64,000 nt of DNA. It comes from Ruditapes philippinarum (lineage: Eukaryota). The position numbers and the translations under genes are program-made. The notes beneath the pieces are model-generated. The model did not search any database, was not told the DNA's origin, and was given only the letters and a program-made list of their open reading frames with translations. Each line of letters begins with the position of its first letter. The first letter of the stretch is position 1. The stretch covers positions 62,001 to 126,000 of the forward strand of contig NW_026857787.1 in assembly GCF_026571515.1 (NCBI RefSeq), given 5' to 3'. This document shows positions 6,701 through 55,449 of this stretch, piece by piece.

Positions 6701-9700
6701 GGTTTATCTGTAATTACTTTGATTAATACGAATGTAAATCTGATAAATGAATTAAAATATCTTACATTTACCTATAATAGAATATATTTGATTGTTTTTA
6801 AGAAAGAATAATTTCAAATTTTGTATAGATCTGTATTTTTCTTTTGTAATAACAGTTACTCTTTTATTATTATTGTAAAATAAGAAGACCGTACTAAAAT
6901 ATATACATGTATATGTATGCATGCTCTATCTTTAGATTGTGGTGACGTTAACAAAGAACATATAGATCATGCAGCAAGCATAAATCAGGATAATGGTACC
7001 ACGTTCAAATCAACTGCAAACGTACATTGTGATGAAGGCTATTATATCAAGGGTCAAACTCAATTGATGGAGATATCAACAAGAACAATAACATGCTCTA
7101 AAACGGGAAAGTGGACAGACATGCCGATCTGCATTCCTAAAGGTATCAGTGCAATATTGTAGATCTTTCTTACCACAATTATGCTAGTTGAATCCCTTTC
7201 TGATGTGTCAAAAGTGTCACAATGGATTCCAACCAATCATTAGCAATATAATTCTAACAAAATAATGTTGGAATATTTGATTTCACAAGAACAAAAAGTG
7301 ATTTATGTATAAGACAATTAAAATGTCTATCAGTTTTATAGTACTGTAATAGTAAAATGTAAAACACGGTATTATATATATGTACAACAACAACAACAAT
7401 AACAACAGCAACAACAGGTATTTAGTACTGTAAATACAAAAATGTATAAAAAAAAGGTTTAGTAATTTAATGTAATACAAATAAAACATATTGCTCACTA
7501 GAATTTGTCTCATTTGATTGTCATAATTTTATTCGCCTATTCATTGAATGTGCTGTTTCATATTTCAGATTGTGGAAGTTTACAAAACATAACTATGATG
7601 AACGCAGGTTCCAGAATGCCCATAAATGGAACCAACTATACAGCGATCGCCAATGTTAGCTGTGATGTGGGATTTAAAGATAAAGATGAAACACAGGTGC
7701 CGGGAGTTACAGGCAAGATTATCAGATGTAATGAAAGTGGAGTGTGGGACAATTTACCAAAATGTGTCCGAAAAGGTAAACATATATTTAATATCATGAA
7801 AAAGAAATACGCGAGATATGTGTTAATATTGGTACCCAACAGTCATGTTAATATAGTGAAGGTAACATTATTTTTGTGTAAGATAATTAAAAATAGCTCA
7901 TTTAATAGTTAATGTAAAACGAAACTTATTTAGTTAGAATTGAAATAATTATGTGATAGTTTACATAAAACGATTAAAAGAACTATCTTAATCAGGGTAA
8001 GTATATGAAGTTCCGCTAAGGGGAGTTAATTTGAGAGCAAAACTGGATAAACAAAGCAAATGAGTCTTACTTTAATATCGAGTTATCAATGACTTTGATT
8101 GCTTAAAATTATATCTATTGCTTTCAAGAGATTTGCTTGCGATCATTGAACCAATTTGATAAGATAAACGCACATATGAGTTTATAAAGATACCCTACTT
8201 GTATGTATTTAAGGATATGATACATGTACTTAGTATGCTATAATCAGTCACCAATTTTATGTAGACATTTTACACATTGTCATATGATGGACCGACAACA
8301 GCAGATAATACAACAACAACAACAACAAATACAAAAATTCAATAAATCAAGTTTATTACTCGTATTTACAAAAGAATTGAAATATCTACAAATGGAGAAA
8401 TGAAATGAAAATAAAATTCATTTCATAGACTAAAGCCTGTCATTTACTTTAAGGGAAAGTCGTACACTTTGAAATAAATCCTATACCTTGCACTTACAGT
8501 AACACGTTGTAGTGATACCAAAGTATACTGATACCCATAAAGATACCTATCACAAATTACGTATTGTTCTTGCAACCTCCATGCTGGCTTCTATGTTAAA
8601 TGTTAGCTTTTCTGATCTGACATCAGAAAGATCCAAAAATCACGAAATCAATACGAAAAGTAGGTGTTCGCTTTGAACAGACAGCACGAAAAATCCTTTA
8701 ACTTCATTTGCTGTCTGTAATCGTCAAAAGCGTAGCTCCCACCCTCTTTTGTATACGAGTCGTTATACCTGACACTATCTTCCGGTAATGAAATGTTCCT
8801 AGCCGTCTTTGCCGTATCGTGTCGGGATGGTACACTAGGATCGCTGGTTATCGACATACATGTATAGTCGTCCTTGCTGTATCGTGTCAGGATCGTACAC
8901 TTGGATTGCTGGTTATCGTCATGTTGCCGTCCTTGCTGTATTGTGTCGAGATAGTAGACTAGGATCGCTGGTTATCGTCAAGTAGCCGTCCTTGCTGTAT
9001 AGTATCAGGTTCGTACACTATGATCGCCGGTTATTGTCAAGTAACCGCCCTTGCTGTATCGTGTCGGGATAGTACACTAGGATCGCTGGTTATCGTCAAG
9101 AAGCCGTCCTAGCTGTATCGTGACAGGACCGTACACTAGGATCGCTGGTTATCGTCGAGTAGCCTTCCTTGCTTATCGTATCGGGATCGTACACTAGGAT
9201 CGCTGGTTATCGTCAAATAGCCGTCCTCCCTGTATCGTGTCGGGATAGTACACTAGGATCGCTGGTTATCGTCAAGAAGCCGTCCTAGCTGTATCGTGAC
9301 AGGATCGTACACTTGGATTGCTGGTTATCGTCAAGAAGCCGTCCTTGTTGTATCGTGTCGGGATAGTACACTATGATCGCCAGTTATTGTCAAGTAACCG
9401 CCCTTGCTGTATCGTGTCGGGATAATAAACTAGGATCGCCGGTTATCGTCAAGTAGCCGTCCTTGCTATATCGTTTCGTGATAGAACACTAGGATCGCTG
9501 GTTTTCATCAAGTAGCCGTCCTTGCTGTATTGTGTCGGGATAGTACACAAGGATCGCCGGTTATCGTCAAGAAGCCGTCCTTGCTGTATCGTGTCGGGAT
9601 AATACACTAGGATCGCTGGTTATCGTCAAGTAGCGTCCTTGCTGTATCGTGTCGGGATAGTACACTAGGATTGCCGGTCATCGTCAAGAAGCCGTCCTTG

Positions 9701-12700
9701 CTGTATCGTGTCGTGATAGTACACTAGGATCGCCGGTTATCGTCAAGTAGCCGTCCTTGCTGTATTGTGTCGGGATCGTATAGTAGGATCGCTGGTTATC
9801 GTTAAGCAGCCGTCCTTGCTGTATCGTGTCGGGATAGTACACTAGGAATGCTGGTTATGTCAAGAAGCCGTCCGTGTTGTATCGTGTCGGGATAGTACAC
9901 TAGGATCGCTGGTTATCGTCAAGTAGCCGTCCTTGCTGTATCGTGTCAGAACAGTACACTAGGATCGCTGGTTAACGTCAAGTAGCCGTCCTTGCTGTAT
10001 CGTGCCGGGATAGTACACTAAGATTGCTGGTTACCGTCAAGAAGCCGTCCTTGCTGTATCGTGTCGGGATAATACACTAGGATCGCCGGTTATCGTCAAG
10101 TAGCCGTCCTCACTGTATCGTGTCAGAACAGTACACTACGATCGCTAGTTATCGTCAAGTAGCCGTCCTTGCAGTATCGTGTCGGGATAGTACAGTAGGA
10201 TTGCTGGTTATCGTCAAGAAGCCGTCCTAGCTGTATCGTGTCGGGATAGTACACTAGGATCGCCGGTATCGTCAAGAAGCCGTCCTTCAGTATCGTGTCG
10301 TGATAGTACACTAGGATCGCCGGTTATCGTCAAGTAGCTGTCCTTGCTGTATCGTGTCGAGATAGTAGACTACGGTCGCTGGTTATCGTCAAGTAGCCGT
10401 CCTTGCTGTATTGTGTCAGGATCGTACACAAGGATCACTGGTTATCGTCAAGTAGCATTCCTTGCTGTATCGTGTCGTGATAGTACACTAGGAACGCTTG
10501 TTATCGTCTAGTAGCTTTTCTTGCTGTATCGTGTCAAGACCGTACCTTAGGATCGCTGGTTATCGTAAAGTAGCCGTCCTTGCTGCATCGTGTCGGGATA
10601 GTACACAAGGATCGCTGGTTATCGTTAAGTAGCTGTCATTGCTGAATAGTGTCAGGATAGTACTCTAGGATCGCTGGTTATCGTACAGTAGCCGTCTTTG
10701 CTGTATCGTGTCGGGATAGTACACTAGGATCACTGGTTATCGTCATGTAGCCGTCCTTGCTGTATCGGGTCAGAATCGGGCTTTTCAGACTTTCAACTGC
10801 TATAATCATTGACCAAGTTGTGGAGTCTAGCCCTGGGTCGAATACTTGAGATATAAAGCACCACAAGTCATATAATACTATAAAGCATTGGGCATAAATT
10901 TGCCCAATGTGGTACATCGTACCTTCACTGGTTCCTACAGTTAACGTTTCAAGTAATAAAGATTAGGTGTTACGGTAGTCACTGCTTGTCACCGAATTGT
11001 CACTGTTAATGATATATGAAAGTTGTTTCATTAATTAGTAAACCTGATGTTAAGTAATGACTAATAATTATAACAAGCACCTTGCAGCTAGTACAATCTT
11101 GCAATAAGATTTATGAATGAACATGCATACATGAATACCAAGATGTATAACGGACAAATATAATAACAGCGTTCCATATTTTAAATAATACATCATAATA
11201 AAACTCTGCCAATGGTACAACAAATGTATGTATGTACATTTCCAAAAGTATTTTCAAGTTAAAAGAAACTCTAGATTCTTCTCCCGCAAGCTATCTTTGT
11301 AAAGCAAAACAATTTACGTCAATCTGTAATGATGAAGAAGGAATCATCTGAGGGTTTTCTGCTTTGTCACGTGATAAAATAAATTTTAGTTACTGAACGG
11401 AATTAAAAGATTTTTACATGGAAATGCAAGTTAAGATAACAAGAAATGATACACTATAATAAATCGACATCTAGGATTTATAACACCCTTTCAGAATAAA
11501 ACCTGGAAATTTGCTACTATGTATATATATTGAAAATAGGGCCCGTATGACAATGTCTTTCGTGACACATACAACCTGATAAGCACATGCACTAAATTAT
11601 GCGAGGACCGAAATATTTGAAACGTTTTGAAACATAAAGTTGTTATAAACATCATTGTATAGATAAGCTTTACTGAACTGATTAAATAAAATAAGATGTA
11701 ATGGTATAAATACACTTTATATGGTGTTAATGGTAAGGTGCTTTTTTAAAGATCGCACTTATTTCAAACAACAACCAAACCAAAACTAACTAAAAGGGTG
11801 CAGTTGGTATAAAAATGCTTATTTGGCAGGATATCCTTTAACTTTGAAAATAAGCCTGTCTCTCGGTACTACGCCATTATTTTTTTTACAGCCTAAATTT
11901 ACTTGAAAGTAAGCCGGCCAGAAATAAGACTTTGATAGCATTACACCTAGATTGTATAGTTAACTGATATATGTATAAGGAATATAATTTATTAGACTGC
12001 GTGGTGTATAAAGCATGTGTTATGTTGAGATAAAGTTATGAACAGTTTTAAAAGATCGCCGTTTTGTTTTGTGTGTGGTTTTTGTTTCGATTTTTTTATT
12101 TTTTTAAGTTTCTGTAAACTAATCTATTTATAGACTGTGGTAACGTCAAAGATCTGAACCTCAACAACACAAATGAAACAGTACAACGGCATAATGACAC
12201 CAAGTTTAACTCTACAGCAGACGTGAAATGTCTGGAGGGATATTTCGATAACAACACACAATCACAAACAACTAGCATATCAACAACAACAATTCGTTGT
12301 TCGGATGAAGGGAAGTGGATTAACTTACCTCTCTGTGTACGCAAAGGTATCCACACATTTTAAATCTCCTTGTTGCCATATCAAATTGTGTTATTGTGCT
12401 TTATTTATGCTTATAATTAAAATCTATTAAAAACAAATAATATTCAATATAAAATTTTATCTATTTCTCTAGTATATTCACATTATTTTTATTTTCTGTA
12501 AGCTTAAGACAATTTGATTTTATCGCATAACGTAACGTCATATGCGCTAAACGTATGAAATGATGAAAGTTCTCGGTATTTTTAAATCATGCAAGAACAT
12601 ATAAATTTTATAGCTGTAAACTGTTGTTCGTACATTTAAAATTTATTGTCACTTTATTGTACAGATTCATTACAAAAAATATTGACTGATTACTGAACGT

Positions 12701-15700: not shown

Positions 15701-18700
15701 TTATTATAGTGACCATGCCTTTGGCGATAATTCCTTTTTCGGACACTACTTTCCGTGATTTATGTGTTTCCAAACAATAATTGTTCTTTGATAATATAAA
15801 AAATGCTGATGATGGATAAATAAGTTTATGCTTATAGAAAAAGACAACATCTAGACACATCTTAGCCTGATGGAGGGGATGGGGAATGGGAGCATTTGAC
15901 TGCTTTACACGACAGGTCCTGTTGTATTGTTCAGTTTTCTTATATGCCACATTTCACTGTCTTTAGATTGTGGAAATTTAACATCACCACCAAATGGCAA
16001 AGTCACGTTGAACAGTACATTATTTAAATCGAATGGCACATATTCGTGTAACAATGGATATAATGTGTTTGGAAATGTTACCGTTACGTGTCAGGCGACT
16101 GGATTCTGGAGTGACAATACCACAGTTTGTCAGATTAAAGGTAATGTACATTCAATATCTATAAACTTAATCATCGGTGATGAATGTTGATTGTCTTGCT
16201 AAATTATCATTAATACAATTACATTCTTTACAAACGGACATCGTTATCTTGAGCTAAATGTCTTTTGTTGTATGGCTTAACATCCGTAATTTAGAATGTC
16301 AAGTGGAGTGCGGATTGTCTTGCCCAACATTACTTTTGTTGAGATTGTATTGGAAACTAATGTATATCGAATGTTAAGCTAAATGTCGATTGTCAAGCTC
16401 AACATTCCTTTTGAAATTGAATTGAAAACTAAAACGAATATCAAATATTGAGCTGATTATTTATTACCAAGCATGACTTTAGATGCCGCCTGTTGATTGC
16501 CTTGTCATGTTATTCAACATAATGGCAGCTTTTGGATACCTTTTGAATTCAAATTTATTGTTTCGGCATACATCAGTTTTTTACTGTACATACTTTGTCA
16601 AAAATCTATTTGTGATGATATATTTGCAAATGGTCAAATATGTTTACAGATTGCGGACACCTTGCAGCACCAGCAAACGGCACCATAACATTTTCTAAAA
16701 ACACCACAGTGTACGGTTCAAACGCTACATTCACATGTGATGCCGGCTATAACCTGACAGGATCGAACACAATAAATTGCATGGCATCAGGACACTGGAG
16801 TGACAATAAAACATATTGCAAAATTAAAGGTTTGACACGTGACTGATTGGTCACATGTTAAATTAAACTAGATAAAAGTTTGCCTAAACGTATTTGTATT
16901 TTTTCATATCGAAAGAATAATTTCACTGATTTCATTAATTTTCAAATGCAAAATATCTTGTTCTTTTTTTTTCAAGCCCCTTTTATTATCTGTGTCATTT
17001 TAATATAGAAATTTGGCCGCGACTCCAAACGGACTTGACGTGAAGTGACACGCTATACTGAAATAAGAAAAAAAAGAATATATGGTCATTTAGTCTTGAG
17101 GTACTTTTTCAGAGTTAAAGTTCCGTTTTTTACGTTGTTGTATTTTATTCAAATTGATATTTTTACTGTTTCAAGATTGTGGAGACCCAGAACAACTAGG
17201 CAACGGTACTGTTGACCTTTCAGATGGAACAATGTTTGGAGCATCAGCCTTATATAAATGTAATCCCGGATATACATTACATGGGGATAACTCTACCACA
17301 TGTCAAGCAGATGGCACTTGGCATGACATTGAACAGAACTGTACATTAAATAGTAAGAACAATTAAGTGAATTTACGTAATATTATTATAAAATGTGATC
17401 AGTCAACTACCGCTATTTTCACCACGTAATGTGGAAAAAAATCTTCTTTTTTTTAATCCAGTCTTATCAATTTAGCTTCAACTTCTTGTCTCCAGTTTAG
17501 TCCAAAAAAACGAATCAAATAGATATTGCACTCCTTCATTTTCATTTTCCGAGTCCATAGAAAAAGAAAAAAGAAGAAGAAAAAAAAGAAAAAAAAAGGT
17601 TTTTCATATTACACATTTTCTACATCGATTCAGTTTCAGTGTCTAAATGTTCAATGTCAAATAAATTTATACTAAAAGTAATCAGAGTTTTTTGATTATA
17701 TAGATACAAAACACTGTTAATTATGTGTTTTTCTTTAATTTATTGTGTTTTTAACAAATTAGTAAATTAGTCTGATATCATTAATCATGCAATAAAACAG
17801 ATAATTATGTTGATTTATGTGATAAAGTCTATAGACATATATCCTCTGCTGCAGTAATCCAATATTGTTATACATCTATCAAATATGCTCCATCATCTTA
17901 GAAAATAACATATGAGCCGCGTCAAGACAAAACCAACATAATGGCTTTACGACCAGCATGGATCCAGACCAGCCTGCGCATCCACGCAGTCTGATCAGGA
18001 TCCATGCTGTTCGCTTACAAACCCTATTACAAGTAGAGAAACTGATAGCGAACAGCATGGATCTTGATCAGACTGCGTGGATGCACAGGCTGGGCTTGAC
18101 CCATGCTAGTCACAAATGCACTATGTTGGTTTTGTCGTGACACGGCTCATATGTCTTTCTTGTAAAAACAACAACGCTAAATGGGTCAAATTTTTCTTTA
18201 TGTGTGTATTTGAAGCATGCACTAAGTCAGCGAATTATACCAACATTACCAATGGCAAAGCAAACGTCACAACGTCTCGGGCGTCTTATCAGTGTGACAT
18301 AGGATTCACCTTACATGGTAACAGCAGTTTGTATTGTTTGCTGAATGGTACATGGAACACAAAGCCACCGACATGCCGAATCACAGGTTCGTTATCTTTT
18401 GATTTTCACTTTTATAAACTAAAACATATATACTAATATTATTATCTTTCCCATACCATGCACGTAAAATATCTTAAAAGAACCTGTCCATACTCCAATT
18501 TTGCAAAACAAATACTGACTGAATAGTGAACAAAGCAAACCATGATTAGACCGTAGAATTCTGCCGTTCGTCTTAGTCTGCAAGTTTCTCATTTGCATAT
18601 CCATTTGCCTCCAAAAGGTTAAGGGGCTACTGAAACGAGCGTATGATTAATTATTATTTATAAGAATCCATTATAATGGATACCTTTTTTTAACAAGAAT

Positions 18701-24700: not shown

Positions 24701-27700
24701 TGACAGGTGATATGACTCCATTTTAATACAAAAATATAACCTCTCAGAAATATATAAATAACGAATAAGTAATGAAACAAGCATCTTTTTTTTAATTTGA
24801 GAAAAAAGTGTGATTTATTGATAAACTGACAGTAACAAAACTATATAAACATCAACATTATTATTATAACTTTATTATATATAAAAACAACCTAAATAAT
24901 TTTTCAAGAAAGATCTGAAACTTTACAGATTGTGGCCAGCCTGCAGGTCCCACTTATGGAAACATAACAACAGATAATGGTACAACTTTCCAATCCGTTG
25001 CCATATACAGTTGCTATGTCGGCTACGATTTGATTGGTACTAACACAACAAAATGTCAGGCAAACAAAACATGGAGTTTACGTTTACCAAGATGTGACAT
25101 CAGAAGTTAGTTAAAATTCATAGTTATCTTCTTCGTACACACATATAATGTTTTCCTTAGTCAGTAAAGATGTTCCCATATATATTTAATTTATATTATT
25201 TTTATTATAATATTTATGTTCTGTTCATTTATTAAAAATGTGTTCAATTTTCTTAAAAACGCCCGTCAACTTGGCATGTACTTTAACGTATAATTCATTT
25301 TTTGTGTTTCTATAATGATTATCATAGGTTTAGGTAATATCAGCGGGTCGTTAAGTGACGTCACGTAATGTTACGCTGGAAATAAATCAGTGATGTATGA
25401 TAATATCGTGGGCTGTTACACAATTAGTTGCTAATACACCATTGTTTGTTGTTACATATTGATTGCTGTTACACCATTTGTTGCTGTTACATTTGTGTAA
25501 ATATCATTCTTGACCGTTTTCTAAGATTGTAGTCATCCGGATAATCCCGCTAATGGTACAGTTGATACGAGCAATGGAATAGTGTACATGTCAAATATAA
25601 CATACAGCTGTAATCCAGGGTATAACCTACAAGGAAATAACACCGCATTTTGCCTAGCTAACAAAACCTGGAGTTCGAAAAGACCGTCGTGCAATATAAA
25701 AAGTGAGTTCTTATTGAAGAAAATATGACACTTTTGTTGTTAAAAAGAATTATGATAGAAATGAAATATAATGATCATAATTAGCAATAGTCTTGGCCTT
25801 ATTATATTTTCTTTCTTAAACAATGCCTTCTAATAATTTTATGACATCCTGTCATATAAATTCAGTGTGTGGTTATCAAAAACCTAATCATAGTGTGAAG
25901 AGTGTTGAACTTAGAGGCCTTTCCACGCCTTTATTAACATAATTAAGTTTCATGTGTGATCTGGGATATGTGATATGTGTAAAGCAGAGGGATATGTAAT
26001 CGGTAGCAGAGATATATTTAGCCCAAATGGTATGTGGCCGAGAGATATGTGGAAGGTATATTTCAGAGTGATGTGTGATCGGCATATTGCGCAGTGATTT
26101 GTAATCGGTATATGACAAAGTGATATGTGATTGGCATGTAGTAGAATTGTGTGTGATCATAATACGATAGAGTGTTGTGTGATCGGCATGTAGCAGAAGT
26201 ATGGGTGATTGGCATATGTCAGAGTGATGTATGATCGGCATTTAGCAGAATGACGTGTGATTATAATATGATAGAGTGTTGTGGGATCGGCATGTAGCAG
26301 AATAATGTGTAATCATAATATGGTAGAGTGATGTGTGCTCGGCATGTAGCAGAATGACGTGTGATCATAATATGATAGAGTAGTGTGCGATCGGCATTAA
26401 GCAAGGTGATGTGTGATTACAATATGATAGAGTGTTGTGGGATCGGCATGTAGCAGATGTATGTGTGATTGGCATATGTCTGAGTGATGTATGGTCGGCA
26501 CATGGAATAGTGATATGTGATCGGTATATCGAACTGATATTTTATATATTATCGACCTATTGCAGAGTGTCATGAGAATGGCATATAGAAGAATAACATG
26601 CCCGACATATAGCAGCCTGATGTATGATCAGTATATTATAAAGTTTTTGTGATCGGCATATATCAGAGTGATAGATTATCATTGGCATATTACAGATTAG
26701 TGGTGTATGATCGGTATATTGTAGTGTGCGGCATACAGCAGAGTGATGTATTATAGGCATATTGCAGAGTTATGTATGATCGATATATTGTAGAGTGATG
26801 TTTGGTCGGCATTTTGTAGAGTGATATATGATCGGCATTTGCAGAGTAATGTGTGATCGGTATATTGTAGAGTGATGTGTGATTTGCATATAACAGAGTG
26901 ATGTATGATCGGCAATTGGCAGAGTGATGTGTGATCAGCATTTTGCAGAGTGATGGAGTATAGCAGAAATATATGTGATCTGTATATGGCTGAGAAATAC
27001 ATGATGATTGATTATGTATCAAATATTCGTATTTCTTATTTTTCAGCATGTGACAGGCTTGATAACCCTACCAATGGTTATATAAATCCTGCACCGGGCC
27101 ACACAATGAATTATAATGATAATGCTACATATACGTGCAATACAGGATACCGCATACAAGGTGTCGACTTTGTCACGTGCACCGCAAGTGGTAACTGGAG
27201 TAGTCCTCCCCCAGTATGTAAAGGTATATATATATGTTTGACAACCAGAAGTACTTAGTTAATGCATTTATGATACGAATGCTTCGGCCTCTAAATCTGG
27301 AAAAATAAAGCGCAGCCATGTTTTAATGGTAAGTTATTATAGTATACTTAACCACCGCGGAAACAATTAAGTAACGTGTAAATATTTGGATCAAGCGATT
27401 TGTCAGACACAGCTGAGCATGCCCAATTATACATTACATCATGCAAACATATAATTTTACGTGATTATTGTTTATTACTTATGAAAAATATTTTTACTCT
27501 TCCGTCTTTCAAATTAATTCAAGAAACTGTCCAAAGCGATAGTGAAATTATCTATGGGAACCGTGCTATAACATGTACTTGTAATTTGAAAAAAATAGCG
27601 TTATGATGAAGCTTGTGAGATACCATAGCCATTAGGAAGGTTCTGGTTTCTGTAGCCAAATATTTCCCTATTTTTAACTTGTGAAATTTTTTTGGTAGTG

Positions 27701-38965: not shown

Positions 38966-39970
38966 TTTTTGTGCCCCCTCTTGGGGGGAGGGGGGGGTAG
39001 ATTTACCCTTGTCCGTTCGTCCGTCCGTTCTTCCGTTCTCTTTTGTGTCGCACGTAACTCAATAAGTATTTGACATAGAGTCATGAAACTTAACGGAAAT
39101 GTTGATTAGCATGTGTAGTTGTGCACCTTTGTATTTTCGTTGGGATTTATTTATTAGTTTTAGAGTAATTGCCCTTGACTTGTTGAATTTTCAACTCTTG
39201 TCGCATGTAACTCGAAAAGGATTTGACCTAGAGTCATGACACTTTACAGGAGTGTTGATCAGCATGTGTAGTTGTGTACATAGATATTTTCGTGTGAAAT
39301 TATGTAGAATTTTTATAGTTATTGCCCTTGACTTAGTACAATTTTGCAATTTTCAATTTGTGTCGCATGTAACTCAAAAAGGATTTTACATATAGTCATG
39401 AAACCTTACGGGAATGTTGCTCAGCATATGTAATTGTGCATCCTGGGTTTCGCTTGTGAATTAATCCAGTATTTGTAAAGTAATTGCCCTTGACTTAGTT
39501 AAAACCGTTTCATTATGGTGTGTTATTTGTTCATTGAGTGCTTTAGTTAGAATCAACCAACTTTACAGGAATAATGATCAACATCACTAAATTACAGGAA
39601 TAATTATCAACATCACTTTGAAGCTATGTACCTGGGACTCGCATGTGGATTTCTTCAGTTTTTGCCCTTGACTTACAGTTGTATAAATTTGCAATTTTCT
39701 ACTTGTTCATGCATAACGGAAAATGCATAGGCCTGAAAGATTACAAGAATGTTGGTCAGCATGTGTACTTATGCACCTTGGGGTTTGTTTGTGGATTTAT
39801 TCAGTATTTGTAAATTAGTATTTGTAAAGTTATTGCCGTATACTTAGTAAAAGATTTTTAGTTTTCAACTTGTGGCACATGAAGTCCATAACATATTTGA
39901 CTTAGAGTCATAAGATTGACAGAACAGTGGTGTGTGGGGGCACCCGTGTCCTTTGCACACATTTCTAGAT
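38966..39970 (+). mobile_element. Helentron/HINE-like non-autonomous element with 150-175 bp internal repeats
   Basis: 5' tttttgtgccccc followed by (ccgt)n; repeated ttgcccttgact and gtcgcatgtaactc; 3' gggggcac (inverted copy of the 5' end), a small hairpin and ctag. Confidence 0.7.
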
Positions 39971-43846: not shown

Positions 43847-44419
43847 TCAGAACCTGTTGATAATATTCCTTAAAACATCCCAATTAACATGTAAATTATC
43901 CGTGTCGCAGTCTTCTATTGCTTGTACAATAACGTCTAGTGTAGCTTGATCCCCTTCTTTCTTTTCCCATTTCAAAAACATTTCATATATGCGCATTGCA
44001 GCAGTATCTTTATTCATACAAATGTGATCTAAAATTATTTTATCAAGACCAAGTTGCAACCCGAGAAGCTCCCAACCTTTCCCAATTGCCATTGCCAAAG
44101 TGCTATACTCTTTATTTGATAATTTTCTCTTCGGAACAGTATCAACTTTTAAATCTGGCTTTAACCATTCCTTCACAATAGTGTGTGTCTGAAGGCAGTG
44201 ACTCGCTCTATCCGGACATGGTACTTTCTCATCACTACATGATTGTATATTGTCAATAGCAAATGTTTCATAACTTCCCTTGCTCCCATGATCTTGGTGT
44301 AAACATCTTGCAGAAATATGACTGATAAAATGCCCCTCATGTTTATTGTCATGCAATTTATGCATCCGTTTGATAATAACCGTCTCTACGTATCTCCGAA
44401 ACATATCACAGACAGCAGC
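43847..44419 (-). CDS. Roco gene: end of COR and C-terminal Death domain (downstream of the premature stop)
   Basis: LSNKEYSTLAMAIGKGWELLGLQLGL...IYEMFLKW...ATLDVIVQAI fits the death-domain pattern; same frame as the COR ORF. Confidence 0.85.
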   Translation of the reverse strand, partial: AAVCDMFRRYVETVIIKRMHKLHDNKHEGHFISHISARCLHQDHGSKGSYETFAIDNIQSCSDEKVPCPDRASHCLQTHTIVKEWLKPDLKVDTVPKRKLSNKEYSTLAMAIGKGWELLGLQLGLDKIILDHICMNKDTAAMRIYEMFLKWEKKEGDQATLDVIVQAIEDCDTDNLHVNWDVLRNIINRF

Positions 44420-45141
44420 CTAAACATTGTCTGGAGGACAGAGACTAACAACAAGAAGCTCGAGTTTGTTTTTCGACAGCATCAGTACACCAGCATGTCC
44501 TCGTTCTATTTCACATGCAGCTACATTATCATATAAAACAGGGTTGCCATTGAACTTGACCAGTGGCCACCGTCCAATTATACGGGCCAAACACGTCTGA
44601 AAAGTGAAGGGCACCATCGTTTCATTTTCAAACTCGTAGCACAAAGAAACAGTTGACAAGGGTTTTCCTTCCAAAAATAACCTCATATTGTCATCATCGG
44701 CTGAAATCTTGAGTAAACTTGGTACAATGAAAAACCCTAATCGCTCAACAGTCATCCCAGAATTATGATTATAAGCTAGGACCTCCGCTATAATATGATG
44801 TTTTTGCATGTACCCTATCAGCAATTGTTTGAATTCATAAAAATCGTTATCTTTTTCTTGTCTCCAAACCTCTTCAAAAAGGTCTGCGCGTAAAATTGCT
44901 GTCGTACACAATTCCTTCCATAAGCTTCTCATTTTCGGACGCACTTTGCAAAATTTTTCAGATGTTATAACGCACCTGAAAGCATCAACAAGAAACTGTG
45001 GATCTAAGACAACATGGTCTGACAAATTATCCTCATCAAAATAACAGAATGTTCCCTTTGAATGATGATATGAAAGAAACAGTTTGATCTGGTCCATTGT
45101 TTCTCTTGAGTTGTCAGTTTGTAATGGACTGTCCGTTTGAC
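44420..45141 (-). CDS. Roco gene: COR domain segment
   Basis: FLSYHHSKGTFCYF...VVLDPQFLVDAFRCVIT...FIVPSLL; TAG at 44422-44420. Confidence 0.88.
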
Positions 45142-45314
45142 ATGTAGTTCTCCGCGTTACATCGTATAGACGGAGAACTGTTGTCTCAACAGGTGCGATA
45201 TCAAAACTGGTATAACCAGTTTGGTCACGTGATAAGAGTTATTGACCGTGCGTACGTACGATTAGTGGTCAGTTCTACAGAGACTCTCGCTTGGTACACG
45301 TCGTTAACTACATT
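45142..45314 (+). repeat. Split direct repeat A1 (173 bp)
   Basis: Identical by eye to 50501-50673. Confidence 0.95.
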
Positions 45315-45328
45315 GGGAAGTTTTTATC

Positions 45329-45623
45329 ATGGATCGAGATACTCACGACATTATCAAGGACGTTTGTAAAGGACACCGTGGAGAAAGCAGGCAGTCTTTA
45401 CTTCAAGAAATTGGGACGATGTTCGAAAAGATAAGTGAACAAAATAATTCTTCTCAATTTGCTAGAATAAGCAATTTAGTGGCATCATCTCAGCCAAAAT
45501 TTAAAAGGAAAAGCAACGAAGAACAGTTTTGTCATAATAGTAAATTTATGTTGAAGCTTAATGAAGCCGAGTCTAAGTTAGATAGCAGTAAAATTGAGGA
45601 GGCCAAAAGCAGTATTACAACAG
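45329..45623 (+). CDS. DIRS gag-like exon 1
   Basis: MDRDTH...KFKRKSNEEQF...AKSSITT; donor ACAG|gtttgt. Confidence 0.75.
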
Positions 45624-46560
45624 GTTTGTGTTTAAAAAACAAAACAAAAACTTAATGAATTCTACTCTATTCCATTTATAAGAAGCATTTTCAATTTGCA
45701 AAAGCTTGGTTTTTATTCAGCAGTTTTAAATTCGGGATACAATTAATAAATTCGCTATTTTCTAATAGTTTTTACGTGTTTAATGTGTAGACCACGTGGT
45801 CTCGATACACGTGTCTTTTGTTATACTAGAGGTGAATTGTTCTGTATGAAGATTGTTGGGATATGTTTATTGCTAAAGGAATAGTAATGCTAATAATAAG
45901 AATGATAATAAATATAAAAATTATATGTCTATTATATTTAAAAAAAAAAAAAAATCTTTGTTTCTTCTGTTTTCAAATTTATTTAGATTAATGTCTTTTT
46001 GGACATAAGTACATAAAAAAAAAAAAAAAAAAAAAAGATAAAGATTTTATAAGCTGATGTGATCAATATAGATGTTTTTTGCATGGTTAGCAATGACTAA
46101 TGTGGACTCGCCTTTTCTTTAACATGTATAAATAGGGGATTCATGTTTTATAGTATTACTGATATAGTTACATTATAAACTTGCATACGCATGTCACAGA
46201 TTTAAAACCCGTTGCGTTGGTAATGCGCAGGCCGATATGAATAAGTTAGAGTAGTATCATTTATAAATAAATTAAGTGATACTATAAATGGCGGTAGCAC
46301 GGGTTTTGCATGTTTACTGATTGAGATATTTTTAAAGTATAGCAAACACAGGAAAACTACGAATGACGGTAATATATTAGTATTTGTTAGATACGGCTTC
46401 TTTTATTTTCAAAGTTTGTAAGAAAATTATGTATTATATCAATGTGATTTTCAGTTACAAGGATTATATCACAGGAGTTGATTATATTGACTCATAAAGA
46501 TTATATTATTTATAGAAATTATGTTAAATATTTTTAGTAATAGGCAAATTTTTCTTTCAG

Positions 46561-47970
46561 CCTTGGATATTTTGTCACACCGACAAAAGATGATACAGTT
46601 GGCGGATGCTAGTGAATTGGGGTGGAGAGTAGTTCATGAGTATGAACAAAATCCTCTAGCAGACGACAGCGATGATGAAAAGAAAATGTATAAAGCTGAA
46701 GTCAGGGCTGACAGGAAGTTCAAAGCTGAGAAAAATAAGAAGTCTAAAAAGTTTAGAACCAAGCCTTACACCAGGAGTGTACCTGCACGAGCTACAAGTC
46801 AATCCACTTCGCAGCAATTTGGTGTACAGAAACCAGGCTTATGTTTTTACTGTGGAAAGCCGGGTCACTGGAGAAAAGAATGTCCAGCAAATACTACAAA
46901 TTTGAATAATAAGATGAGTACATTTTGTTTATTTAATAAACATTGCGATATGCTAGACAGTGATTCATTGAATCACAATTACAGGGAACAAATAAATAAT
47001 GAGGCAATTAGTTGCGATTCGAACCAAAATGATTCAGAAAATGAAATCGTTGTATTTCCTAAAAAATGTTTAAATCTTAATGTTTCTTCTGTGAATCACG
47101 GATATTGTTCTCAGCTGAACAGTGAATGCTCAGTATCAGTAGCAGAGCATTTTGGGTCTAAAAAAGAAAAACTTAAATGTGTAATATCGCCAGTAGGAAG
47201 ATTGAAGGCTCATGCTAGCAAATGGCGATCTATCAATGGCGATTCTTTCATTGTAGACGTTATAGAAAATGGTTACAAATTGCCATTTAGAAATATTCCT
47301 AGTAAAGTAATGCTTAAAAATAATAAGTCCGCTAGAGACAATCCGTCTTTTGTTACGACGGAAATAGAGTGTTTACTAGAAAAACATGTTATTTCGGTAG
47401 TAGATCACGTGCCTGAAGTTGTAAATCCGTTGACTGTGGCTTATAATAAGGCCGGAAAAGCAAGGTTGGTTTTAGATTGTAGGCATGTAAATCAGTTTTT
47501 GCATCTATTCAAAATCAAGTTTGAAGATGTTCGTGTCGCTCAGTCTCTATTTAGTGCTGGGGTTTTTGCTTTTACTTTTGATTTGAAAGGAGCTTATCAT
47601 CACATCGATATTTTTCAAGCTCATAGGAAATATTTAGGTTTTTCATGGATCTATAATGGTCAACAGACTTATTTTGTGTTTAATTCACTTCCATTTGGAA
47701 TAGCTAGCGCAGGGCATATTTTTTCTAAAACTGTCCGAGTATTGGTCATGTACTTAAGGTCATTAGGTCATAAGGTGATAATGTATCTTGACGATGGCAT
47801 CGGTGGTCATATTAATTTCCGAGAAGCATTAGAAAGTAGTGCATTTGTAAAAAGTACATTGATTAAATATTATATAATAGTTTTTTTGTTTGCGGAAGAA
47901 AAGTGTCATTGGTTTTCCTGTCAAAAAGTCACATGGTTAGGTTGTAATTTTTTTTTCATAATAAGTTTTT
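46561..47970 (+). CDS. DIRS gag exon 2 (CCHC knuckle) continuing in frame into reverse transcriptase
   Basis: RQKMIQLADASELGW...DDSDDEKK; CFYCGKPGHWRKEC; FDLKGAYHHIDI, LPFG, YLDD. Frameshift in the T-runs near 47950-47970. Confidence 0.92.
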
Positions 47971-48847
47971 TGTCACAGAAGAACGAATGTCTGTCACAGA
48001 CAACTCAATTGGGTCTGAATTACATCAGATAAGTTGTGACAAGTGTAGTGTTCTACCAGTCCGTGTGTTAGCGTCTTTGGTTGGACGTCTGATTTCTCTT
48101 CAATTTGTCTTTGGTAACATAGTGAGATTGAGAACGAGAGAGATGTATAAATGTATCATCTCTAGGGCTAGTTGGGACTCGCCAGTTTTAGTGAGCGAAT
48201 CAGCCATACATGAAATTATGTACTGGAAAGAAAATGTAAGAAAATTGAATGGATCAGGTAAATACATGTCTGAAATGAAAGTGTACGATATACACGTATT
48301 TTGCGATGCCAGTGGATCTGGTTATGGTGGTTACCTATATTTTCCGAGCAATGAAGCTCAATTACATTCTAATATTCAAATGAGTGGAACATTGCTATCC
48401 CCGGAAGTGGATTGCATGTCGAATGTTATGTTGAAATCACCGATTTCTTCAGCTGTTTCCCCGGAAGTGGAAAAATGTATGCTAGATAATACAAAGAAAA
48501 GTATAGATATAGATACGAAAGTCACTGGAAGTTGGCTTTTTGAAGAACAGATTAAAAGTTCTTCTTGGCGTGAGGTTGAGGCAGTGAATAGGGTTGTTAG
48601 AAGTCAAGCACAATTTCTCAAAAACAAAAATGTGAAAGTTTTTTCTGATAATCAAAATGTAAAATCGATTCTTTTGAACGGCAGTGTTAACGCAGAGCTT
48701 CAAAAAATTGCTTTAGGTTTCAATGATTTTTGTGAAGAAAATAATATCCATATTAGCCCGGAATGGATACCTAGAGACAATAATCAGATATCAGATTATT
48801 TGAGTAGATGTCTTGTTTGTGATGATTGGTCAATATCAGATCGTTGA
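47971..48847 (+). CDS. DIRS RT connection and RNase H
   Basis: FCDASGSGYGG...SSSWREVEAV...FSDNQNV...WIPRDNNQISDYLSR. Confidence 0.9.
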
Positions 48848-49260
48848 TTCAGATATTTTGATTGTATTTGGGTAATACACACAATAGATAGGTTTTCTAC
48901 TCATTATAACACTCATTGTGAAAGGTTTAACTCTTAGTGGTGGGTACCAGGAACGGAAGCTATAAATGCTTTGGATCAGTCCTGGAAAATGATAATAATT
49001 GGTTAGTTCCCCACTCGGCTAATAGTAGAGTGTATAAACAAAATTGTAAAGGAAAATGAAAGTTGCACATTAATTATACCAAAGTGGAAATCTTCAGCTT
49101 TTTTTTGGCCTTGCTTGTTTGATACAAAACGTAATTTTAAAACTTACATAAGAAATGCAGAGGTTTTTACAAAAAATGGAATAATACGTACTGCGAAAGG
49201 TAATAACGGCGTGTTTGCACACACACAATTGCGTTTTGTATGCTGGCACTTAAGATCAGG
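48820..49260 (+). pseudogene. Degenerate DIRS adenine-methyltransferase-like domain
   Basis: DDWSI...HTIDRFSTHYN..C.RFNS*WW.PG.EA.NA..Q.W / NNWLVP / TLIIPKWKS..FWP, with two stops and frameshifts. Confidence 0.75.
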
Positions 49261-49317
49261 TTTTAGTTTGGAGTGCCAATATAGAGACATGTACTGTATT
49301 CTATTTTACAGTATTTT

Positions 49318-50361
49318 ATGAAGTTTATGATATTTGTCATTTCGATTATAGGTGTTGACTTAAAACCTTCAATCAGGAGCATGATGAACAACGCAGGAGT
49401 GGACATTCAAAAACATCAAACTGTTATTGATCACATGGCAGGTTATATTGTACAATCCCGGGCAGTTTCTACTAGACAGAAATATATGAACTATTTCAAA
49501 CATTTCGAAAAATATTGTGTCAAAAATGGTTTTGTTTCCAAGCCAGCTTCATCTATAGTTGTAGCAATGTATTTAACAAACATGTTAGATCACGGAAAGT
49601 CGTACGGTGTTATTTCTTCTACCGTATATTCTATTAAATGGATGCATTCTTTGCATGATTATGTGGATCCTACTACGAATTCAATGGTTAAACATTTATT
49701 GGAAACAAGTAAACGAGAATGCTATGAACCTGTTAAAAAGAAAGATACAATAGATTCGGAAATGTTACAAACATTATGTGATAATTTTTCAGATTCCAGC
49801 GACGTGGTAACCTTAAGAGATCTGTCAATTATTCTTTTAGGTTTCGCTGGGTTTTTACGTTTCAACGAACTGAATTCTTTAATTTGTTCAGATATAACAT
49901 TCAATGATGATCACTTAGTGATAAACATTCGTAAGAGCAAAACTGATGTGTATAGGCAAGGAAAATCTGTTCCGATTTGTAAGGGTACTACTAATGCATG
50001 TCCTTTTAATATGCTTAAAAAATATATGAGGGCAGCTTGTCTTGACGTAACCTGTAATGAATTTTTGTTTAGGCCATGTTTTAGGTCAAAGGGGGTATCG
50101 GCGCTTATAAAAAGTAATAAAAAGTTGTCTTACACACGAGTTAGGGAATGCATTTTGTCTAAATTAAAGTTAGTAGCACCAAATTTAAATTTAGGTACAC
50201 ATTCTCTGAGAGCTAGTGGAGTTACGGTGGCCGCTAACTCAGGTGTGTCTGATAGATGTTTAAAGAGACATGGCCGTTGGAAAACTGATATAGCTAAGGA
50301 CGGTTATATTGTTGATTCATTAGGCAGTCGATTGTCAATTACAAAAAAGTTAAAGTTATAA
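49318..50361 (+). CDS. Tyrosine recombinase (intact ORF)
   Basis: Catalytic set GFLRFNE (R), KSKTD (K), HSLR (H..R), HGRW and DGY (Y). Confidence 0.95.
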   Translation: MKFMIFVISIIGVDLKPSIRSMMNNAGVDIQKHQTVIDHMAGYIVQSRAVSTRQKYMNYFKHFEKYCVKNGFVSKPASSIVVAMYLTNMLDHGKSYGVISSTVYSIKWMHSLHDYVDPTTNSMVKHLLETSKRECYEPVKKKDTIDSEMLQTLCDNFSDSSDVVTLRDLSIILLGFAGFLRFNELNSLICSDITFNDDHLVINIRKSKTDVYRQGKSVPICKGTTNACPFNMLKKYMRAACLDVTCNEFLFRPCFRSKGVSALIKSNKKLSYTRVRECILSKLKLVAPNLNLGTHSLRASGVTVAANSGVSDRCLKRHGRWKTDIAKDGYIVDSLGSRLSITKKLKL

Positions 50362-50442
50362 GTATTTTATAGATACTTTTTTATAAACATATGAATAATT
50401 AATTGAATTTTAATGTTTTTCGTCTCAAGCTTTGTAATTTCT

Positions 50443-50673
50443 ATACGTGTCTCGCCTTGCAGTTGTTGTTGTTGTTGTTTTGGATAGTGCCTGTTGAGAC
50501 ATGTAGTTCTCCGCGTTACATCGTATAGACGGAGAACTGTTGTCTCAACAGGTGCGATATCAAAACTGGTATAACCAGTTTGGTCACGTGATAAGAGTTA
50601 TTGACCGTGCGTACGTACGATTAGTGGTCAGTTCTACAGAGACTCTCGCTTGGTACACGTCGTTAACTACATT
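50443..50673 (+). repeat. Internal B1+A2 junction of the split direct repeats
   Basis: B1 50443-50500 abuts A2 50501-50673 directly. Confidence 0.95.
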
Positions 50674-51137
50674 AAAATTCAATAACATTTGTGCAAAATG
50701 ATGTTTATATATGCTTTTATTTGTTTAATTAAGAGGCATGTCTGAACTGTTTCCGTTGTTCAGTATTTCTAGGAATAGTCGGGGCATTTCAATGTTAACG
50801 CATTGACTAGGCTACGGAAACACGTTTCCTCCTGTTTTTAAAAAATAATGAAAAGAAAAGATAGGGGGTTTTTCGTGGGCGGCCCGTATTCTGATGAAGA
50901 AATATACGTTTGAATTTTCGATTTCCGTCATGATTGAAAACATTCTGGCTTTGCTTTAGAGGTTTTATCAGATTATTAACATGACGCAAATCGCATTTTC
51001 GATTGTAGCATGCTTATATTTATCTAATAGAATACACATGATTAATGAGTGATTAATTCTTGAGTTATAGAATTATATTGTAATAGAAAAGTATTATTGT
51101 AATAACGAATGTTTACTCCTCAGTTGTGTACCAATAA

Positions 51138-51195
51138 ATACGTGTCTCGCCTTGCAGTTGTTGTTGTTGTTGTTTTGGATAGTGCCTGTTGAGAC
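51138..51195 (+). repeat. Split direct repeat B2 (58 bp), preceded by AATAAA
   Basis: Identical to B1, including (gtt)6; aataaa at 51133-51138. Confidence 0.95.
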
Positions 51196-52365
51196 TGTCT
51201 ATTTCTATAAGTTCATCAAGTTTTATAATTCTTTTGTGTTTGTTCATTTTAAGTGCTTTCTCAAGTAGAATCCATTTAGCCGGAATTCTTGTTTTCATTT
51301 GTATTTTTCCTAAACGTGTTATATACGACCGTAAAGCATCAATTTCGCTTTCTGACTCACTTGTATTTGAAATAGCAAATTGATCAGGTTGAATATGATT
51401 AAGACATACACTGTCGTCAAATATTTGCCTGACCTCCTCAAAATAGTCCTCGACCTTACTGTCCATATTTAGTTTGTCCGTGTGGGTTCCTACTAAAATA
51501 ATAGCCGGTTCCATTCCATCCCTACTGCCAACAAATGAATTTACAGAAGCCACCCAGAATTTTAAATAGTCCCTCATTCTCTTTTGATGTAATGGGAACT
51601 CCTTATCTTCAATTATTGTGTCCAGGGATATGCTTAAATTAAACACTAGCACATAAACAGCATGTTTTGAATGAAATATTTGATGGGTAGCATAATAGAC
51701 AAACTGTCCTCCGAAGTCCCATATATTTAGCGTAACATTGTTGTCAAGGTTTATTGCCGCCTCAATGGATTCAACTCGTTTTAATTCAGTCTGAAATGAA
51801 TTTAAATTTTCGTAATTGACTGTTTTATTTCTAACATAAATATCAACAGCGCCAGCAATTTTAGTTTTGTTTTCTTTAACGTTTTCTCTTCTTTTGCCAT
51901 TGTACTCATCAGATATATCAATTATTTCGAGACCACGTGCTGAACAAATTTTGTTTTTATCTCTTGTTCTTGATATATCCGTAACTGAAGTGGGTGCTTC
52001 TTCATCTTTGTTAAGCAGTCCTTTTTCCCCATGAGTAACCGATGCAAATGTCTCGTACGTTCTTTCTCTTAGTGCAATATTGACCAAGCGCTGAACAGTT
52101 TCTTCGTCAAGATCTTCATTGTCTAACTTCTTCCATTCATTTTCGCTGATAACTGTGCATTTATGCAAGTCAATACCGTTGGTTGTTTCAACTCCTTCAA
52201 CTGACTTTTTCAATAAACGCCTTACTAATGACGTTTTGCCTTGCTCGCAACAACCAATAACCATAACTCGTATTGTGTTATCATTTTCTGTCCCTTTCTC
52301 TAATGCTTTTTCATAGAGTTCTCTTGTTTTTGGATCATTTGAAAGCTCATCTGGTACTGTATTTT
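51196..52365 (-). CDS. Roco gene: Roc GTPase domain and start of COR
   Basis: Acceptor ttttatag|AAAATACA; G1 GCCEQGKTS, G2 TNGID, G3 WDFGGQ, G4 VGTHTD, G5 ISN; then IPAKWILLE. Confidence 0.93.
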
Positions 52366-52694
52366 CTATAAAAAAACAAACATTAAACTACCATTTTTTC
52401 GTTACATGTGTTAAAACTTAGCCCATTCAAACAAAATATCTTTTTCAGCGTTTGCATTTTAATGGCGAACTTAAAATATCAATCAATATCCAAGACAACT
52501 AGGGGAAGGTTAATATATTAAGGTACTCAATCTACATAAATTTTGTAGATTTTTTGGGCCCTTTTTTAAAATGCCATCAGACATTTAGGAAAATAAGATC
52601 TGTTAATTGTAATTCTAAACTTTGCAGTACGGAAAAATTGGAAAGGTTGCATGTAGGATACAAATTAAGTCTAAAGAAGCATCAAACAATATTT

Positions 52695-54165
52695 ACAAAA
52701 GGGCCATGAGTCCTGAGTCGTTCACCAGAAACAACTGCTTTTCAGTAGAAGATAAAAGACGCCCCTAATAATGCTACAGACAAAGTTTGGTGATCATCCA
52801 TCAATCATTTCAGTTGGAGATGATGTTCAAATGTTTTTCTAATTACAGCTTTAGCGGCCCATAAATGGGGCAAATCAAATTGATACGAGCAAATGTGATA
52901 AAAGACTACCTAAGAATACTACAGACAAAATTTTGTGATCAACCATAAACTATTTCAGTAGGAGATGATGTTCAAAGGTGTTTCTACGTTTAGCTGTATC
53001 GGCCCCTAAAAGGGGCAAATCAAATTAATATGAGCAAACTTGTGAAAAGACAACCTGCGACTGCTACAAACAAAGTTAAATGATCATCCGTCATTTATTT
53101 CAAAAGGAGTTGATGTTCAAAGGTTTTTCTATTTTTAACTTAAGCAACCCCTAAAAGGGCCAATCAAATTAATATTAGCAAACTTGATAAAAGACTACCT
53201 AAGAATGCTACTGACAAAATTTGGTGATCATCCATCGATTAGTTTTGTAGAAGGAGACGTTTAAAAGTATTTCTGATTTTAGCTTAAGCAGTCCCTAGAA
53301 GAGGCCAATCAAATTAATATGAGCAAACTTGATAAAAGACTACCTCGGAATGCTACAGACATAATTTGGTGATAATCCATCAATAATTCAGTAGGAGATG
53401 ATGTTCAAATATGTCTAATTTAAGCTTTAGCGGCCCCTAAAAGGGGCCAACCAAATTAATATGAGCAAACCTGATAAAATACTACCTAAGAATGCTACAG
53501 ACAAAATTGGTGATCATCCATCAATTAGTTCTGTGGAAGGAGACCTTCAAAGGTATTTCTTATTCTAGCTTTATCGGCACCTGAAAGGGGCCAATCAAAT
53601 TAATATGAGCAAACTTCATAAGGCATTACTTAAGAATGCTACAGACAAAATTTGGTGATCATGCATCAATAATTCTTTAGGAGATGATGTTCAAATGTTT
53701 TTCTTTTTTAGCTTTAGCGGAACCAAAAAGTAGCCAACCAAATTAATATGAGCAAACTTGATTAAATACTACCTAAGAATGCTACAGACAGAGTTTGGTG
53801 ATCATCCATCACTTACTGAAGTTCTGCACAAGGAGATTTCTAAAGGCGTTTCTTTTTTTAAGTCTAGAAACCCCTAAGAATGCTACAAACAAATGTTGGT
53901 GATCATCCATAATTTAATTTAGTAGTAGAAGATGTTTTAAGGTTTTTCTATCTTTAGCTCTGTTGACTCTTAAAAGGGTCCAATTGAAATGACATGAGCA
54001 AATTTAAGTGTGACTGTCACAAGGATGCTACAGACCAAATTTGAGGTAAATCTGCCCATTATTTGCAGAATAGAAGATGATTGTTTACACATGACGACGG
54101 ACCCCGAGTACCCCCTTTGATACTAATAGCTCAACCTGAATCTGCATCTCTGATTAGCTATAAAT
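52695..54165 (-). mobile_element. Helentron/HINE-like element with about nine 144-bp tandem subunits (Roco intron)
   Basis: Unit atgctacagacaaa.tttggtgatcatccatc...aaattaatatgagcaaact; termini acaaaagggccatg and atagctcaacctg...agcta. Confidence 0.75.
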
Positions 54166-54263: not shown

Positions 54264-54902
54264 CTGAAACGAAATAATGATCAAATAAATAATTTAGCGC
54301 ATATATTCATACCAGCTTTTGCATTATAAAGCAAGTGGTCTTGGATATTTCATAGGAATATAACGCTTATCACGCTAACGCTTTAATGATGCATCTTCTA
54401 TTTAGTAGTGATTTTCCGTCATAAGTTATTGTTAATCATGTGGATTTTGTTTGTTTGTTTCATTTTACGCCTTTTCCCAACACTATTTCAGTCATATAGG
54501 CGGGTAGTTTCCTAACCATTGTTCCTGGAGAGTTACACCAGTACTAGACAACCTTCCTCCGCGCTAAACTATAATCACGTGGAAAGCTTTGCTATGATGT
54601 TAAAACATATATATTATAAATATTATAAAACAATATATATATGCTGTTTCTTAGTTCAAACAATTAAGCATGTAAATTGAAAATAACATTTTATGCTATA
54701 ATACTAAGTAATATCCAAATGAATATTATTACTAATCAATATGTCTTTTTATAAACAAACAAAACTGGTTATTGCTTCTCATTTCATGTATATCAAATGT
54801 GTATACAGGAAATGCAACACTGGCACTTATTTTAGCAAAGGAAAATGTTCATGCTTAAAAGAACTTAAAAGCAATAGAAATTTACAATTTTATCTTACTT
54901 AC

Positions 54903-55140
54903 TTCTATAAGTTTTGGTATACTAAAGAAAATATTATCATCCCTCTCAATTTGAAAATATTCACCAGGATTTGTGTACTTGATTTGAAACTGGAGTGCTT
55001 GTTTTCCAAGCGTTGGTCTTTTTACAACAAGAACAAGCCAATCTGGATGTGATTGACTTCGTCGTACGAGAAAGGTTCCATTTTCCTGATATTTCAGAAG
55101 TTTCTCTGATTTAGCATAAGAAATATTTCCATGGAACCAC
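54903..55140 (-). CDS. Roco gene: main SH2 exon
   Basis: WFHGNIS...GTFLVRRSQS...FFSIPKLIE|gtaagt. Confidence 0.93.
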
Positions 55141-55449
55141 CTGGAATTTGAATTTCCGAGTTCGTTCAACACAGCATATATAATTTGAATCTGTGATATG
55201 TATCTATTTAAGATGTCTTAATACGGAAATGTTAGAGCTACATGAAAATAAACGGAAAATACGCGGAAATGAGTAGAACTCTATATTGGTTGTCTTTAGA
55301 TTTCACTCCTTAGCTGGAAATGAAATGGTTACAGTTTATGTCCTTGTAAAAAAAAGACTTTATCTGTAGCTTTTTGTAAGTATTATTAATTCAATGTTTT
55401 CTCTTTTTTGGTTGTTAATCTGTAAAAAAAGAAATTATTTAATACTCAC

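Follow-up and report, generated by a model that had tools for sequence, protein, structure and literature searches.

The closest described relatives of the element reported here are retrotransposons with a tyrosine recombinase (YR). PAT-like elements (PAT, TOC and kangaroo; PMC4157794, PMC3266345) have split direct repeats, a gag zinc knuckle, reverse transcriptase (RT) and RNase H, a methyltransferase (MT)-like domain and a YR in the same orientation as in our element; in the scheme of PMC4157794, split direct repeats together with an MT domain place an element among the PAT-like group and exclude Ngaro. Ngaro elements (PMC8547959, PMC3783388, PMC9210276) share the layout A1-[open reading frames (ORFs)]-B1A2B2 and the YR but have no MT domain. 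DIRS1-like elements (PMC3266345, PMC7192593) carry an MT domain, inverted terminal repeats plus an internal complementary region (ICR); the trinucleotide at their circle junction, which equals the first and last trinucleotide of the element, recombines, in the published model, with an identical genomic trinucleotide without target duplication. Here we describe an element of about 6 kb in a 64,000-nucleotide (nt) stretch of the venerid clam Ruditapes philippinarum (contig NW_026857787.1, positions 62,001 to 126,000), hereafter the window, in whose coordinates all positions are given. The element interrupts a minus-strand exon of a ROC-COR-Death gene and bears the trinucleotide GAC at both of its ends.

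A PAT-like element in a ROC-COR-Death exon

The features of the element and of its host exon are given below, a slash marking a junction or splice site.

43847 to 44422, minus strand: Death domain of the host gene (PF00531, E 6.1e-10), sharing its frame with a nonsense codon (44420-44422)
44423 to 45141, minus strand: COR part of the host gene, downstream of the insertion (PF16095, E 1.6e-7; 81% identity to protein P0001)
45139 to 45141, plus strand: GAC core at the left junction, common to target and element (TTTGAC/ATGTAG)
45142 to 45314, plus strand: split direct repeat A1, 173 nt, 173/173 identical to A2
45329 to 45623, plus strand: gag exon 1, 98 codons and 1 nt, homologous to the N-termini of gag relatives, with phase-1 donor CAG/GTTTGT
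45624 to 46560, plus strand: intron 1, GT..AG, 937 nt, spliced in frame (joint 45620 to 46558)
46561 to 46913, plus strand: gag exon 2 with a CCHC zinc knuckle (PF00098, E 1.4e-6)
46911 to 46919, plus strand: likely non-canonical 5′ splice site AAG/ATGAGT, phase 0 (RNA joint; K-M-S in Gag-Pol)
46914 to 49351, plus strand: pol region, likely intron 2, AT..AG, 2438 nt, with RT, RNase H and decayed MT
49330 to 49351, plus strand: 3′ splice site ...GATTATAG/, phase 1 relative to the YR frame (YAG likewise in loci L003, L005, L006 and L008)
49351 to 50361, plus strand: YR ORF, open, catalytic motifs present (PF00589, E 3.8e-7, above the cut-off)
50443 to 50500, plus strand: repeat B1, 58/58 identical to B2, ending in the internal GAC (50498-50500)
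50501 to 50673, plus strand: repeat A2, a copy of A1
50674 to 51137, plus strand: unique spacer between A2 and B2, 464 nt, defined from sequence
51138 to 51195, plus strand: repeat B2, whose last letters are the right GAC (51193-51195; TTGAGAC/TGTCTA)
51196 to 52384, minus strand: ROC part of the host gene, upstream of the insertion (PF08477, E 4.6e-15; 72% identity to P0001)

Assigned by its repeat layout and domain content, the element is a PAT-like tyrosine-recombinase retrotransposon of the DIRS order and represents a putative new PAT-like family. Its parts follow the order A1-gag-RT-RNase H-decayed MT-YR-B1A2-spacer-B2. The split direct repeats A1-B1-A2-B2 are those of PAT-like elements, as are the RT (PF00078, E 1.7e-9, above the cut-off), the RNase H (PF17917, E 1.3e-4, below it), the YR with its catalytic residues and the MT-like domain after RNase H. 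Against this assignment stands the MT remnant of this copy, which, with its stops read as X, reaches only E 0.064 for PF05869, under the Pfam cut-off; the same stretch matches locus L003 at E 1.8e-15, and the L003 segment scores 33.6 bits versus a Pfam cut-off of 28.1. In this copy, stops and frameshifts interrupt the pol region. Ngaro was rejected as a placement because Ngaro elements are without the MT domain, whereas a remnant of it is present in the clam element. DIRS1-like was rejected because the terminal repeats are direct, not inverted with an ICR; no inverted pair was found at the element ends among the 25 longest of the 43 listed, nor in a self-comparison. The domain search returned no DDE integrase or endonuclease domain, only the YR, and no second copy or solo repeat of the element was found within the window. 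The clam element differs from described PAT-like elements in its 464-nt A2-B2 spacer, in a spliceosomal intron in gag, in having pol within a second, likely AT-AG intron, and in the decay of its MT.

Loci L003 to L008, as well as proteins P0141, P0165, P0273 and P0346, are animal-type DIRS-order elements in bacterial or archaeal metagenome-assembled genome records, and they are likely host DNA binned with symbionts.

The nearest relatives of the host protein are from Ruditapes and Mercenaria. An SH2 domain exon (54882-55217, minus strand; PF00017, E 5.6e-14) lies upstream on the host strand, and proteins P0003 and P0004 join SH2 to ROC-COR-Death.

GAC at the junctions and the integration model

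GAC stands at the left end, at the right end and at the internal B1/A2 junction (TTGAGAC/ATGTAG), in each case where the original prediction had placed it. The layout with identical repeats and one GAC per end, with no further duplication, can be read directly. We consider it quite probable that this PAT-like element was inserted by its YR, which would have recombined a predicted circle, at the GAC of its B/A junction, with a GAC of the exon. Following the published model, RNA running from inside A1 to inside B2 would be reverse-transcribed, the internal B1A2 block would serve as template for the missing ends, and the ends would join to form a circle with B1/A2 as its junction, which the YR would then recombine with the genomic GAC. 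The predicted circle junction is identical to the internal B1/A2 junction over 58 + 173 nt. Integration through a GAC core would thus be a clean instance of a known model, that of DIRS1-like elements (PMC3266345, PMC7192593); the original prediction of a circular intermediate integrated by the YR fits that model, from which we infer the circle and the recombination, while the novelty that it implied was overstated. The DIRS1-like elements differ in that their repeats are inverted and their trinucleotide is mostly NTT (23/28 elements in PMC3266345), whereas the clam element has direct repeats and GAC.

That the empty site held a single GAC is supported by the spacing in homologs, not by the reading frame. 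Of 109 matches, 69 were examined; 38 were not anchored and 31 were anchored on both sides. The spacing expected for one GAC, 24 residues between the anchors, was found in 10/31 anchored homologs and a spacing of 23 or 25 in none, the remaining 21, which are distant, having a shorter loop of 16-18 residues. The four closest homologs read D-S-[H/E/K/S]-T-D-S-P, with a Ser codon that takes two letters of the core. Domains, junctions and homologs together uphold the predicted element class and a single-GAC empty site without target duplication.

When 45142-51195 (6054 nt) is removed, the minus-strand host frame is open across the site, with Ser as the spanning codon (...EIDSQTDSPLQ...), just as had been predicted, and it remains open only as far as the stop codon at 44420-44422. 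Removals that end at 51192 or 51198 keep the frame open just as well, and the length of 45139-51195 is likewise divisible by three. Because the core is 3 nt long, zero, one or two copies of GAC all leave the frame open, and the frame, therefore, cannot fix the base of the crossover. We ruled it out as proof of that base, since the length removed is divisible by three whichever of these copy numbers is left; the argument that a coding target fixes donor, target and crossover to the base fails for this reason, and it is the homologs that settle the copy number. The strand cuts inside the identical core cannot be placed from the sequence.

The same prediction had called the integration exactly reversible. 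This holds as arithmetic only: neither an excision nor an empty allele of the same gene was seen, and a second nonsense codon remains. That codon (44420-44422), which is Lys in P0001 and has another letter at full depth in all four sequencing runs compared, precedes the Death domain, so excision of the element would not restore the host gene. The closest experimental support for reversibility comes from the Crypton YR transposons of Chlamydomonas (bioRxiv 10.1101/2022.05.23.493040), in which a short donor motif recombines with a near-identical target and clean excisions leave one target motif. Cryptons are DNA transposons with a 5-bp core and without RT, and excision has been seen for them, not for the clam element.

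Contigs of four runs were compared with the element: X15 is RNA, and X1, X4 and X6 are guessed to be DNA. In paralogous contigs of X1, X4 and X6 (about 15% different, from three studies), the match to the window ends at 51194, 51193 and 51194, respectively, inside the core, and the contigs run on for 99, 150 and 109 letters, none of it B2 sequence (seen among the 32 of 764 pieces shown); the direction of these contig ends was deduced from how other pieces end at repeats. In X1, X4 and X15, contig breaks also fall 30 nt short of the A1 and A2 ends, which is the pattern expected of a two-copy repeat. No break at the element ends was present among the 24 of 234 loose ends shown. A variant at 45105 that lies, in each of the four runs, 34 nt from a contig end was set aside because the side was not given.

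Several observations weigh against integration through a specific GAC core. The evidence for the core comes from a single insertion; a constant core without target duplication fits at the single site examined. The joint of the empty allele, 45141 to 51196, was absent among the 15 of 16 joints shown, from which rows near repeats had been dropped. Flanks of other copies were obtained from none of the contigs of the four runs, the metagenome contigs, the viral contigs or the genome contigs. The start of the A repeat, used as an exact pattern, gave two matches in metagenome contigs, both 19-nt chance matches in unrelated GC-rich DNA; the YR search of viral contigs yielded none from three candidates; and the YR alignment against genome contigs gave six distant loci of 31-43% identity, in none of which both repeat pairs with flanks were found. 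An overlap of at least 3 nt with the B/A junction occurs at 236 of 3650 host-exon positions on both strands (6.5%), and because the boundary was not known beforehand, this figure is fairer than the p of ~0.009 for the exact word GAC at a given place. We regard the GAC match in these sequences as modestly beyond chance. In the sections available, the trinucleotide model of PMC3266345 and PMC7192593 concerns inverted-repeat DIRS1-like elements and not explicitly split-repeat elements, and PMC7192593 calls the specificity of the DIRS-order YR untested and reports DIRS-1 complementary DNA (cDNA) to be mostly linear and single-stranded in vivo, with no circle-junction product in the polymerase chain reaction. 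The clam element itself has the split-repeat layout. Goodwin and Poulter, as well as the kangaroo paper, reportedly extended the trinucleotide model to such elements.

One could envision, then, that the 3-nt overlap is chance or repair microhomology, and that a linear cDNA or a blunt circle junction was joined at a break with no specific core. The any-overlap frequency and the mostly linear DIRS-1 cDNA are in keeping with this, as is the lack of similarity outside the core, where donor and target match at 4/20 and 5/20 letters; on those counts extended att-like arms were rejected. We think that this is unlikely because neither end lost or gained a base, the family model predicts a core of 3 nt, and the YR is intact with its catalytic motifs kept. 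An ordinary 3-bp target-site duplication with a coincidental internal GAC would also put GAC at each outer end and a single one in the empty site, yet it is highly improbable given the identical GAC between B1 and A2 (p ~0.009) and a domain search that found the YR but neither a DDE integrase nor an endonuclease domain.

The target reads GACTGT(C) (45139-45141/51196-51199), and a palindromic GGACTGTCC lies 11 nt away at 45127-45135. Since each encodes Asp-Ser of the host, the arrangement is probably incidental.

Splicing of gag and probable removal of pol

Introns have been reported in some fungal DIRS elements. In the clam element, a joint from 45620 to 46558 (937 nt, GT..AG) was found in the RNA run X15 and in X6, and it fuses the 98-codon exon in frame with the rest of gag. 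If X6 is indeed DNA, the joint marks an intron-less copy and would be direct evidence of an RNA intermediate. Relatives share the position of intron 1: it is spanned by E-A in RefSeq models, and it is where many ORF calls begin or end. Relatives with a continuous gag have G followed by I, M or K at the exon-1 donor site in 35/37 cases, as a retained G/GTA donor would give.

A second joint, from 46911 to 49350, removes 2438 nt comprising pol and leads from AAG/ATGAGT to ...TTATAG/GTG. It was found in X15 only and in none of the three other runs. The donor is standard except for A at +1, and the acceptor is standard; the A is the family state, since contig 18 of X4 shows no difference there. The join runs from phase 0 into a phase-1 acceptor, so that Gag ends V-L-T-stop. 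Taken with the end of protein P0369 and the motif of the gag relatives described below, the joint points to a conserved non-GT 5′ splice site in gag, and the likely AT-starting intron may set the amounts of Gag versus Gag-Pol.

Whether mollusc PAT-like elements set the output of Gag, Gag-Pol and recombinase by alternative splicing at a conserved donor without G at +1, NAG/HTRAGT, is in our judgement evenly balanced. According to this proposal, intron 1 is spliced out of gag, as seen in the RNA run, and a second, likely inefficient splice from AAG/ATGAGT to the YR acceptor would remove pol, with Gag ending three residues on, in the first codons of the YR exon. The NAG/HTRAGT donor would be recognised but poorly used, leaving enough RNA with intron 2 to serve as Gag-Pol message and genomic template. 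The YR would be made when the separate phase-1 donor of exon 1 joins the same YR acceptor, which would put the YR behind the N-terminus of Gag.

The conservation of the donor was judged from protein sequences. Among the 120 listed of 199 gag-pol matches, 96 have a recognisable knuckle, and in 92 of these [KQE]-[ILM]-[SCA] occurs within 30 residues of it in an otherwise variable linker; over the next 30 residues a looser pattern appears in 19/96, with V in 10. The residue at −1 in the 92 cases is K (86), Q (5) or E (1) and never R, the middle residue is I (65), L (22) or M (5) and never V, and the third is S in 89. This motif is what NAG/HTRAGT would encode, and a GT donor would give Val. The Leu in 22/92 suggests that relatives use T or C at +1 too.

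A YAG acceptor in phase 1 precedes the YR in L003, L005, L006 and L008, four of the five loci inspected, L004 being unclear. Among the 120 YR matches listed, 57 extend at least 30 residues upstream, and 46 of these have a G-[IVL]-x-L motif, which lies 24-30 residues before the first conserved Met position in 44/46 and has no Met between in 28/46. Because Met is mostly missing after the motif, the YR likely needs an upstream phase-1 exon. No fusion protein of exon 1 and YR was found among the 120 listed YR or the 54 exon-1 matches, which is not evidence of absence, and a join of the exon-1 donor to the YR acceptor was not seen among the joints shown for the four runs.

Alternatively, K-[ILM]-S could mark the Gag/Pol border as a conserved motif of the protein, and the pol-skipping join could be an artefact of template switching or stem from transcription of a deleted copy. 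We regard this as the less probable account. The join comes from a single contig of one RNA run and has a 2-nt (AG) overlap; deletion derivatives are known in the family (48712 to 49284 in X4 and X6); Val is also missing from 1/16 Ile-dominated columns elsewhere; and in the alignment of all 120 proteins, 4 of 118 residues are Val in the column that probably holds the motif. These points count against the splicing proposal. On the other side, the join falls precisely at a TAG acceptor with a pyrimidine tract, the donor matches the U2 consensus everywhere except +1, the join is missing from the three guessed-DNA runs, and the −1 residues are those of NAG codons (K, Q and E), never R in 92 cases. 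A Logan contig of 2025 nt encodes protein P0369, a Gag with 39% identity in exon 1 that ends NNK-VLV-stop; this is the end that the splice predicts, and the one that the conserved G-[IV]-G-L-K with which the YR exon begins should give in the other frame. P0369 is one of 54 exon-1 matches, the other search having left out proteins of <237 residues, and its contig may derive from RNA or from DNA, a point in favour of the alternative. In the distant locus L006, a canonical G/GTGAGT follows the knuckle.

The literature search, which covered neither older subscription papers nor Repbase reports and supplements, found no description of such splicing for DIRS-order elements. The intron of the Aspergillus telomerase RNA, with its 5′ splice site AUA(A/C)GU (PMC4299874), has the same A at +1 in an otherwise standard donor that is kept across species for a function, but that site blocks the second step and frees the 5′ exon, whereas the clam join is completed and concerns a protein-coding RNA. 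In Drosophila copia, pol is spliced out to give a Gag-only message, as proposed here; copia is a long terminal repeat element with an integrase and uses canonical splice sites.

State of this copy, the rest of the window and implications

Family contigs do not differ from this copy over 46271-47245 (0/975) or 49423-49883 (0/461) and show three differences over 49350-50451; over 46884-49379 there are 48 differing letters and 33 gap positions. The differences from the family contigs are limited to the pol region (window positions 47466-49350), and gag, YR and repeats match. With a dead pol but a gag, YR and repeats like those of the family, the copy was likely mobilised in trans. Identical repeats alongside a decayed pol suggest either that a sublineage with dead pol was recently inserted by movement in trans or that the copy is a recombinant.

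The deletion derivative joined from 48712 to 49284 in X4 and X6 is without the MT stretch. Summed contig depth is higher over the YR and the spacer and was not used as a measure of expression or copy number; solo A-spacer-B units may account for the higher spacer depth (50674-51137) of X6 and X15, depth being a poor measure.

Elsewhere in the window, tandem arrays lie at 8797-10861 (~59 nt), 26006-26998 (~26 nt), 39033-39846 (153-178 nt) and 52723-54063 (~145 nt). Long inverted repeats resembling miniature inverted-repeat transposable elements lie at 4575-4719 (57 nt, 93%) and 17908-18154 (108 nt, 88%), each with 31 nt between the arms.

The GAC core adds a non-NTT core and a coding target to the published model, which dates back to the first DIRS surveys, and no new mechanism, and it offers a defined donor/target pair for studying a DIRS-order recombinase in vitro. 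In the literature examined, the expression of the three proteins of YR retrotransposons and the balance of Gag and Pol are little described. If the splicing proposal is true, then a natural, widely conserved donor without G at +1 in animals would be a rare case for the spliceosome, and the splicing plan would explain why gene callers mis-build such elements.

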